A stretch of 64,000 nt of DNA, from the NCBI RefSeq assembly GCF_046105845.1, contig NZ_CP151004.1; one strand, given 5' to 3'. The DNA is from Escherichia coli (GTDB taxonomy: Bacteria; Pseudomonadota; Gammaproteobacteria; Enterobacterales; Enterobacteriaceae). The notes beneath the pieces were generated by a model. It saw only the letters and a list, made by a program, of their open reading frames with translations, did not search any database and was not told the DNA's origin. Made by a program: the position numbers and the translations under genes. This document shows, one piece after another, positions 26,246-27,747 of this stretch. Within the stretch, counting starts at the first letter, position 1; each line of letters starts with the position of its first letter.

Positions 26246-26270
26246 ACCCACCTTCAGGTGGGTTTTTTGT
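26246..26270. terminator. Bidirectional terminator between lipoprotein gene and mnt
   Basis: Hairpin CCCACCTTCAGGTGGG followed by TTTTTTGT. Confidence 0.6.
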
Positions 26271-26505
26271 ACAAATCCTTCAGCGTATCAAACACCATCT
26301 TCTTAACAAGCTCTGACTGCTCATCAGCGAGTCGTTCTGCATCGTCGCGATATCCAGTCACAGGCGATGGTTTTGATAGAGCATCTTGGACGATTTGTAA
26401 CAACTCGGAGTTCATTGATCTCCCATTCGCCTCCGCCCTGAATTTTAATTTCTCCCTTACTTCCATAGGCATACGGAAGTTAAAGTGCGGATCATCTCTA
26501 GCCAT
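26254..26505 (-). CDS. mnt: Mnt repressor (ribbon-helix-helix)
   Basis: 83 aa MARDDPHFNFRMPMEVREKLKFRAEANGRSMNSELLQIV..., recalled as P22 Mnt. Confidence 0.9.
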   Translation of the reverse strand: MARDDPHFNFRMPMEVREKLKFRAEANGRSMNSELLQIVQDALSKPSPVTGYRDDAERLADEQSELVKKMVFDTLKDLYKKPT

Positions 26506-26527
26506 GCCATCACTCCAAGTTAGTGTA

Positions 26528-26581
26528 TTGACATGATAGAAGCACTCTACTATATTCTCAATAGGTCCACCGTGGACCTAT
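26528..26581. promoter_or_regulatory. immI control region: Pant, Arc operator (26533-26553) and Mnt operator (26562-26580)
   Basis: ATGATAGAAGCACTCTACTAT matches the P22 arc operator; TAGGTCCACCGTGGACCTA is a 19-bp palindrome matching the P22 mnt operator. Confidence 0.8.
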
Positions 26582-26595
26582 ATTGTGAGGTGAAT

Positions 26596-26757
26596 ATGAA
26601 AGGAATGAGCAAGATGCCGCAGTTCAATTTGCGGTGGCCTAAAGAAGTATTGGATTTGGTACGCAAGGTGGCGGAAGAGAATGGTCGGTCTGTTAACTCT
26701 GAGATTTATCAGAGAGTAATGGAAAGCTTTAAGAAGGAAGGGCGCATTGGCGCGTAA
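26596..26757 (+). CDS. arc: Arc repressor
   Basis: 53 aa [53 protein letters not shown], recalled as P22 Arc. Confidence 0.9.
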
Positions 26758-26825
26758 AGTTGAAGCCCCAACTGCGGGAACAGTCAGGGCTTCGGTATCA
26801 ACAAATCGGATTAGGAAATATTGAC

Positions 26826-27704
26826 ATGAAAAGTATAGCAAAGGCACAAAACGATTTCACCATCTTCAAATTCGGCGACAGTGAAATCCGCGTCATCAAC
26901 AAATGCGGTGAGCCGTGGTTTGTAGCAAAAGATGTTTGTGATGCTTTAACCCTGACTAACTCACGCAAGGCGCTTACTGCACTTGATGACGATGAAAAGG
27001 GAGTAACTTTAAGTTACACCCTTGGTGGTGAGCAGAATCTAAGCATTGTTAGCGAATCAGGTATGTATACATTGGTTCTGCGCTGCCGCGATGCTGTCAA
27101 TAAAGGTTCGGTCCCGCACAAATTCCGCAAGTGGGTAACAGCAGAAGTTCTACCTTCAATTCGCAAACATGGCGAGTATGTGAAAGGCAAGAAAACCACT
27201 GTTGAGGAAAGAACGCCGCTACGCGATGCAGTAAACATGCTGGTAGGAAAGAAAGGACTTCGCTATGACGATGCATACAATATGGTTCATCAGCGTTTTG
27301 GTATTGACAGCATTGATGAACTTTCAATTGAACAAATCCCGCTGGCCGTAGAGTACATCCACAGGGTAGTGCTTGAAGGCGAGTTTATCGGCAAACAAGA
27401 GAAGAAAGCAAACGAGCTTTCTGCAAAAGAAGCAAACAGCCTTGTATGGCTATGGGATTATGCTAACCGTTCACAGGCATTATTCCGCGAACTGTATCCG
27501 GCATTAAAACAAATTCAATCGAACTATTCCGGCAGATGCTACGACTACGGTCATGAATTCTCGTATGTTATCGGAATGGCGAGAGACGTTTTAATCAATC
27601 ACACACGAGATGTTGATATCAATGAGCCAGACGGACCAGCGAATCTTTCCGCATGGATGAGACTTAAGAATAAAGAATTACCTCCTTCAGTACATAACTA
27701 CTGA
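26826..27704 (+). CDS. ant: Antirepressor Ant (Bro-N/KilA-type)
   Basis: About 292 aa from ATG with AGGAAA RBS; N-terminal Bro-N-like domain; ORF-track start 26760 is a TTG extension. Confidence 0.85.
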
Positions 27705-27722
27705 CAGATAACCAACGCGACA

Positions 27723-27747
27723 ACCCAGCTTCGGCTGGGTTTTTTTA
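27723..27747 (+). terminator. Rho-independent terminator after ant
   Basis: Hairpin CCCAGCTTCGGCTGGG followed by TTTTTTT. Confidence 0.65.

Follow-up and report, generated by a model that had tools for sequence, protein, structure and literature searches.

Genetic organization of the module

An immI module with P22-type regulators was found intact at 26254-27747 of the 64-kb stretch of DNA analysed (the window), and it comprises mnt, arc, sar and ant together with two operators and the promoters Pant, Pmnt and Psar. The three protein genes, which a previous reading of the sequence had claimed to be present, are all uninterrupted. The mnt gene (26254-26505, minus strand) encodes the 83-aa maintenance repressor and is transcribed divergently from arc and ant. 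On the plus strand, arc (26596-26757) encodes a 53-aa ribbon-helix-helix repressor and is the first gene of the ant operon, and it is followed by ant (26826-27704), which encodes a 292-aa antirepressor. The reference for alignment was the curated P22 record BK000583, which is annotated for promoters, operators, sar and terminators.

Two terminators were located by the terminator scan. The first is a bidirectional one, a G+C-rich hairpin at 26246..26263 that separates the 3′ end of mnt from the upstream lipoprotein gene; in the alignment it is identical to epsilon34, where it is annotated as a Rho-independent terminator. An sroH match over this region (26243-26265) was rejected, since it reached 16.7 bits against a cut-off of 80 and covers the terminator hairpin only. 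The second is the intrinsic terminator of ant (27722..27741, plus strand), in which a stem of 8 bp precedes TTTTTTT; it lies upstream of the tailspike gene and corresponds to the annotated ant terminators of P22 and epsilon34.

Mnt, Arc and their operators

Mnt is identical to P22 Mnt at 81 of 83 residues and to epsilon34 Mnt at 82 of 83. It contains the Pfam domains Arc (3.9e-30; ribbon-helix-helix, N-terminal) and Repressor_Mnt (7.2e-19; tetramerisation, C-terminal), and the PDB sequence search led to the P22 proteins 1MNT (1.2e-45) and 1QEY. Arc has 52 of 53 residues in common with P22 Arc, the change being R16K, and likewise 52 of 53 with epsilon34 Arc; it matches the Pfam family Arc at 9.8e-31 and the PDB entries 1ARR/1PAR, that is, the P22 protein, at 5e-31. 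The P22 sequence is unaltered in the β-strand PQFNLRWP of Arc and in residues 2-13 of Mnt (ARDDPHFNFRMP), the strands that we take to contact the bases and read the DNA.

Both operators had been reported as readable in the intergenic DNA, and the alignment to P22 immI pairs each of them with the corresponding annotated P22 operator. The arc operator (Oarc), ATGATAGAAGCACTCTACTAT, at 26533-26553 is identical in 21 of 21 positions to the annotated P22 operator (BK000583) and matches that of epsilon34 exactly. The mnt operator (Omnt) was recognized as the 19-bp palindrome TAGGTCCACCGTGGACCTA at 26562-26580, which extends to a perfect 21-bp palindrome at 26561-26581 with 10-nt arms of 100% complementarity. 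Compared with the annotated P22 Mnt site, it has C for G at the centre and one different flanking base. The central change is equivalent to the same site on the opposite strand, and the flanking change gives a higher symmetry; both centre variants are natural, with G in 27 related loci and C in 14. Since each of the two sites is unique in the 64-kb window and no chance matches are expected, even with three mismatches allowed, the operators had been placed correctly.

The operators are interlocked with the two divergent promoters. Pant (26528..26556, plus strand; TTGACA-17-TATATT, 11/12 in the promoter scan) drives arc and ant; the arc operator sits between its -35 and -10 elements and the mnt operator covers its expected start site. 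Pmnt (26533..26561, minus strand; TTGAGA-17-TATCAT, 10/12) is overlapped by the arc operator, which contains its -10, and its -35 adjoins the mnt operator. Both promoter sequences are identical to the annotated P22 arc/ant and mnt promoters, and both were also picked up independently by the consensus scan.

The sar antisense RNA

The Rfam sar model RF00262 matched 26758-26824 on the minus strand, above its curated threshold (71.6 bits, gathering cut-off 43, E = 4e-14), which bears out the prediction of a sar equivalent on that strand at 26750-26830. The match is full length (model positions 1-68), with both helices formed and no non-canonical pairs flagged. By analogy with the P22 annotation, the RNA of about 70 nt spans 26756-26825, its 3′ end lying two bases into the arc stop codon and its 5′ end on the base that precedes the ant ATG. 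The computed fold (-29.7 kcal/mol, z = -7.3) has two hairpins, one at the 5′ end and a terminator hairpin of 14 bp. The 5′ hairpin carries the anti-Shine-Dalgarno motif UCCU, and the complementarity of the RNA to the arc-ant spacer takes in the ribosome-binding site of ant.

The shape is the same as that of P22 sar, while the sequence of the 5′ hairpin is different (GUCAAUA.../...UGUUGAU here versus GUUGGU.../...ACUGAC in P22); the terminator differs from that of P22 in one loop base. This terminator was missed by the generic terminator scan, and its T-run is weak. A promoter search on the minus strand of the arc-ant junction, as the sequence-only reading had proposed, detected Psar at 26832-26860 (GTGAAA-17-TATACT with a TG-extended -10, 9/12 plus TG), inside ant codons 3-12 and at the same position as the annotated P22 Psar.

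The antirepressor Ant

A truncated ant, which would have contradicted the claim of an intact gene, was ruled out by the full-length product of 292 aa (300 aa in P22) and by the identical 879-nt CDS in RefSeq. PHROG 245, "anti-repressor Ant", matches the protein at 9e-112. An upstream in-frame TTG at 26760 was considered as the start codon and rejected in favour of the ATG at 26826, which is preceded by an AGGA Shine-Dalgarno sequence and coincides in the alignment with the start codons of P22 and Kapi1; this start also leaves enough space for sar.

The domain architecture is not that of P22 Ant. Instead of homology over the whole length with P22_AR_N and P22_AR_C, the protein shows a Bro-N domain at the front (about the first 120 residues; PF02498, residues 20-110, 5.7e-20, 72.2 bits, above cut-off), a shared middle region and P22_AR_C (PF10548, residues 192-264, 3.6e-29, 101.1 bits, above cut-off). 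In the alignment with P22 Ant, 171 of the 317 columns are identical, almost all of them beyond residue ~120; no alignment to P22 Ant is obtained for residues ~6-120, and the P22 and epsilon34 Ant proteins align only from about residue 121. Compared with Ant of coliphage Kapi1, 289 of 292 residues are identical. The label "P22-type" given to the module therefore holds for the regulators, the operators and sar, but not for the front of Ant, where residues ~6-120 are Bro-N and not P22_AR_N.

The fusion of Bro-N to P22_AR_C is the arrangement that defines antirepressor-like proteins of the "Bro network". No solved structure of Ant or a relative was found by the PDB sequence search, and the literature searches on Bro-N antirepressors yielded nothing specific to this Ant.

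Prophage context and C2

The window holds a P22-like prophage, for which N (581-883), c2, a CII-like activator, NinB, RusA, Q, the small terminase subunit and the tailspike were confirmed. The assignments of cro (1899-2084), the replication genes and the remaining structural genes are putative, being based solely on position and synteny; the portal, scaffold and coat ORFs are likewise listed under names given by position. The module is placed in the late operon between the gene-16 position and the tailspike gene. A 613-aa ORF (23509-25350) occupies the former, and its identity as the ejection/injection protein is taken from that position; downstream of ant, the tailspike gene (27805-30144) encodes the P22 head-binding domain. 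On the 3′ side of the tailspike gene follow an acyltransferase gene, an integrase gene, tRNA-Arg(CCT) and then yfdC and mlaA; the names of the last two are taken from E. coli VTB97022v, to which the DNA is 97.5% identical and in which the gene order is the same. The prophage is integrated at tRNA-Arg(CCT) of an Escherichia chromosome.

The c2 gene (1168-1818, minus strand) encodes the primary (immC) prophage repressor, the presumed target of Ant. C2 is identical to P22 C2 at 202 of 216 residues (94%) and contains HTH_3 and Peptidase_S24 Pfam domains; its first 60 residues, in the region of the HTH_3 match (residues 10-64), show only two changes. The OR and OL operators at immC align with their P22 counterparts, and the DNA of the immC region is closest to coliphages HK629, mEp235 and 21. 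A P22-type c2 region alongside immI, as had been asserted, is thus present in the same prophage, with P22-like OR operators. Since the immI module and a P22-type C2 occur in one prophage, both halves of the bipartite immunity system are present, and from this gene content a full bipartite immunity would be expected.

Mosaic structure

In the megablast search against phage records, P22, epsilon34 and many P22-like Salmonella phages matched the module in two pieces, and Kapi1 matched it over the right two thirds. The segment of mnt, operators and arc is 97-99% identical to P22/epsilon34, versus about 40-55% (unrelated) to Kapi1. Next to it, the 40-bp sar terminator is common to both lineages (95-98% to P22/epsilon34 and 100% to Kapi1). 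The relation is then reversed in the sar 5′ hairpin and the Ant N-terminal domain, with about 55-60% identity to P22/epsilon34 versus about 96% to Kapi1. The 18 bp around the ant start codon and the Psar -10 show 94% and 100% identity, respectively, and the rest of ant 82-87% and 98%.

By these segment identities, the module is evidently a recombinant joined within sar, made of an epsilon34/P22-like regulator unit, from mnt to the sar terminator, and a Kapi1-like ant part, from the sar 5′ hairpin to the ant terminator. Judging from the same comparison, the joint lies in the 40-bp sar terminator. None of the isolated-phage records in this megablast search covers 80% or more of the module. Stx-converting phages were among the matches to the ant part, and in those listed, ant was not accompanied by the P22-type unit of Mnt, Arc and operators.

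Distribution and domain shuffling

The P22-type mnt-arc unit, at a coverage of at least 80%, was found in 162 of 5426 complete E. coli genomes (about 3%), and the whole module of the window in 43 of them (0.8%), with 94.6-99.8% identity. IMG/VR was scanned for the exact sar terminator, which gave 120 loci, and these were classed by sequence signatures for the gene upstream of sar and for the Ant type. P22-type Arc combined with the Ant type of the window occurs 10 times, with the window counted, and about 10 IMG/VR contigs have the mosaic.

On the 5′ side of the sar terminator, the IMG/VR loci have a P22-type Arc, a Kapi1-type Arc or other arrangements, and one locus (L010) has an extra zinc-finger ORF between arc and sar. 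On its 3′ side, the N-terminal regions of Ant fall into at least seven sequence groups and three Pfam families (P22_AR_N, Bro-N and KilA-N); some of the 120 loci also have a different C-terminal part of Ant. The sar 5′ variants, whose divergence precludes a reliable MAFFT alignment, were folded one by one. Each of the 26 distinct 5′ halves among the 120 related loci folds as a 5′-terminal hairpin, and 25 of the 26 have the anti-Shine-Dalgarno motif in or beside the apical loop.

The Psar extended -10, TGnTAnnCT, is kept in nearly all types, across Ant proteins with unrelated N-terminal domains. The first five codons of Ant are also conserved, as M-(N/K/T/S)-S-(I/L/V)-(A/S/T), probably because this promoter element is kept there, which would explain why unrelated domains share the same start.

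Domain swapping among proteins with Bro-N, KilA-N, P22_AR_N and P22_AR_C has been described as the "Bro network" (PMC10111431), and a high turnover of the "ant moron" is documented in P22-like phages (PMC2629481; PMC8022706). A more specific reading is that the 40-bp sar terminator and the box of about 18 bp with the ant start and the Psar -10 act as fixed recombination joints, and that swapping the front domain retargets Ant; it is advanced tentatively, as a possibility on which we would not rely. With such joints, sets of regulators (Mnt/Arc types), in some loci including an extra ClpX-type zinc-finger gene, would be exchanged independently of the Ant fronts (P22_AR_N, Bro-N, KilA-N). If the retargeting is true, a Bro-N Ant controlled by P22 Mnt and Arc would engage in cross-talk with other prophages and not simply copy P22 immunity.

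Proposed function of the module

The module is very likely an intact P22-like switch for secondary immunity (immI), located in the "ant moron" of a P22-like prophage. In the lysogen, Mnt produced from Pmnt would bind the palindromic operator over the Pant start and keep arc and ant off, and at this operator it would also lift the interference with Pmnt, its own promoter. After infection, Pant would fire briefly until enough Arc has built up to occupy its 21-bp operator, located between the hexamers of Pant, and to shut down Pant as well as Pmnt. The sar RNA, transcribed from Psar within the start of ant, would pair with the ant ribosome-binding site and block ant translation. Any Ant escaping the three brakes would bind C2 non-covalently and lift immC repression. 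In P22, the Mnt, Arc and sar steps have been established (Susskind, Sauer, McClure and colleagues; cited in PMC2629481 and PMC13397905). Because the regulators, the binding sites and the RNA are near-identical to those of P22, we have good confidence that these steps would also apply, by analogy, in the window.

The last step is worded with more caution. Inactivation of the resident C2 by the Bro-N/P22_AR_C Ant is inferred from the conserved middle and C-terminal regions, from the broad repressor range of P22 Ant and from the fact that the triple repression has been kept. The P22 paradigm is not automatically transferable, since a Kapi1 lysogen, in which the same ant is combined with other regulators, gave no detectable mnt transcripts (PMC12922286). 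Moreover, the Ant of phage Phi24B, 82% identical to P22 Ant over the last 104 residues, left superinfection immunity unaffected and only raised late-gene expression after induction (PMC3064807).

These data lead to the alternative that regulation is P22-like but the Bro-N Ant spares the resident immunity, and either boosts late genes after SOS induction or targets, in trans, the repressors that other prophages in the cell produce. The N-terminal domain of Ant has been replaced, and the Phi24B phenotype fits (PMC3064807). So does the free swapping of Bro-N, KilA-N and P22_AR_N before the same C-terminal part, in line with the "Bro network" (PMC10111431), which suggests that specificity modules are being exchanged. 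In addition, VTB97022v has kept the module in a prophage with extensive deletions, where only a role in trans, or none, is possible. However, 172 middle and C-terminal residues are common to P22/epsilon34 Ant (82-87% DNA identity), and P22 Ant acts on several lambdoid repressors (PMC3064807), so that activity may not depend on the swapped domain. The retention of three-layer repression by Mnt, Arc and sar also makes most sense if unscheduled Ant would harm the lysogen. On this evidence, an Ant that leaves the resident immunity alone is considered improbable.

That the module is a decaying, non-functional immI remnant, as proposed for HK620, Scho1 and phage L, is hardly credible: the "ant moron" varies more than any other part of the late operons in P22-like phages, and decayed copies have been documented (PMC2629481; PMC8022706), but here the full-length state of all three reading frames, the intact state of both operators, all three promoters and both terminators, the 97-99% identity of the regulators to P22 and the conservation of the module in 43 genomes refute it in practice.

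A textbook circuit of two ribbon-helix-helix repressors with two operators, three promoters and an antisense RNA is thus preserved in Escherichia prophages with hardly a base changed. Through the shared Mnt specificity, mutual exclusion would be expected, in one direction or the other, between these prophages and superinfecting phages of the P22 or epsilon34 type. The evolutionary interest is modest and lies in the sar terminator and the promoter box as conserved seams for shuffling regulators and Ant domains; the natural chimeras could be used to find the Ant domain that recognizes the repressor. Beyond annotation, the module is of little consequence.

Comparison with known systems

The immI region of P22, mnt-arc-sar-ant, was reportedly described by Sauer et al. 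in 1983. Its gene order, strands and site between gene 16 and the tailspike gene are the same here, the Psar -10 is conserved, and the middle and C-terminal parts of its Ant are homologous to those of the window. The host of P22 is Salmonella, whereas the prophage in the window is from Escherichia, and the P22 neighbours sieA and orf59a do not adjoin the module here. With respect to the RF00262 family, sar of the window differs in nothing of substance and represents a common variant of the 5′ hairpin, found in 17 of about 120 related loci.

The left half is most closely related to the "ant moron" of epsilon34 (genes 14-18; Villafane et al. 2008, PMC2629481), with 97-99% identity from the lipoprotein of gene 15 and the terminator through mnt and the operators to arc, and 87% over the C-terminal part of ant. 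At the gene-14 position, an unrelated 109-aa gene is found here, and, unlike epsilon34, the window has an Ant N-terminal domain and a sar 5′ hairpin of the Kapi1 type. Kapi1 (vB_EcoP_Kapi1, MT813197) corresponds to the right part, with 96-100% DNA identity from the sar terminator to the ant terminator, but its Mnt-like (78 aa) and Arc-like (54 aa) repressors have only about a third of their residues in common with those of the window, and the P22 operators are absent from the Kapi1 locus in the alignment. The Ant of the Stx phage Phi24B and the "Bro network" proteins likewise combine a P22_AR_C-type C-terminal region with a non-P22 front (PMC3064807; PMC10111431). The system is a known one, and the module is already annotated in RefSeq genomes; what is new is its mosaic composition, with the front domain of Ant swapped.

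Recombination and persistence of the immI module

Two short islands are conserved within the sar–ant part of the immI module (window 26758-26841), the 40 bp sar terminator and the 18 bp start of ant with the Psar -10 box. In the window and the 120 IMG/VR loci retrieved with the exact sar terminator (L006 onward), the flanking DNA has been swapped on both sides of each island while the islands themselves are kept. Both islands appear to be the joints at which the module recombines.

In many related loci, a short Arc-like gene is separated from the sar terminator by an additional gene for a CxxC protein of about 67 aa, named 'ClpX C4-type zinc finger protein' in RefSeq. 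This arrangement is found at 9384-11349 of the IMG/VR contig L010 and in the E. coli genome match H78. Locus L010 carries, besides the CxxC gene, two Mnt-like ribbon-helix-helix genes in tandem. Such loci represent a more complex form of immI that includes an additional putative regulator.

A module 99.8% identical to that of the window was found in E. coli VTB97022v (locus L005, NZ_CP178670.1 1473219-1488712). Nearly all structural genes of this prophage are gone and its tailspike gene is split by IS2. Since the prophage is gutted yet immI was kept, the module can outlast the phage once under its control.

Mnt is labeled 'partition protein ATPase' in PHROG 795 (phrog_795) and in several RefSeq phage records, such as NC_002371 and NC_011976. 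On an 83-aa ribbon-helix-helix repressor, this label is a propagated mis-annotation.

Prophage context and comparison with P22 and epsilon34

In the region 27805-33092, the tailspike joins a P22 head-binding domain to an unrelated receptor-binding part. It is followed, all on the minus strand, by an Acyl_transf_3 gene (30204-31382), whose product is a candidate O-antigen acyltransferase, a tyrosine integrase gene (31699-32892) and tRNA-Arg(CCT) (33018-33092). The prophage end that holds the tailspike also carries the integrase, unlike in the P22 prophage layout. Between Q (7233-7856) and the gene for the small terminase subunit, a plus-strand gene (9881-10366) encodes a T5orf172/MUG113-domain protein of 161 aa that matches phrog_4284.

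The immC region (900-2600) shows 98-99% DNA identity to coliphages HK629, mEp235 and 21, but 91% to P22. Compared with the P22 operators, OR1 is identical, whereas OR2 and OR3 differ at one or two positions.

Left of mnt, the slot of sieA/orf59a in P22 is filled by two other genes, both candidates for roles in superinfection exclusion or lysogenic conversion. The first (25785-26237, plus strand) encodes a predicted 150-aa lipoprotein that matches phrog_6823 and, weakly, a PEGA domain, with about 95% DNA identity to epsilon34 gene 15. The second is a 109-aa ORF (25370-25699, minus strand) with a weak, sub-threshold match to the septum-formation-initiator (DivIC) profile phrog_8100; at its position, epsilon34 has an hkcB homologue instead.
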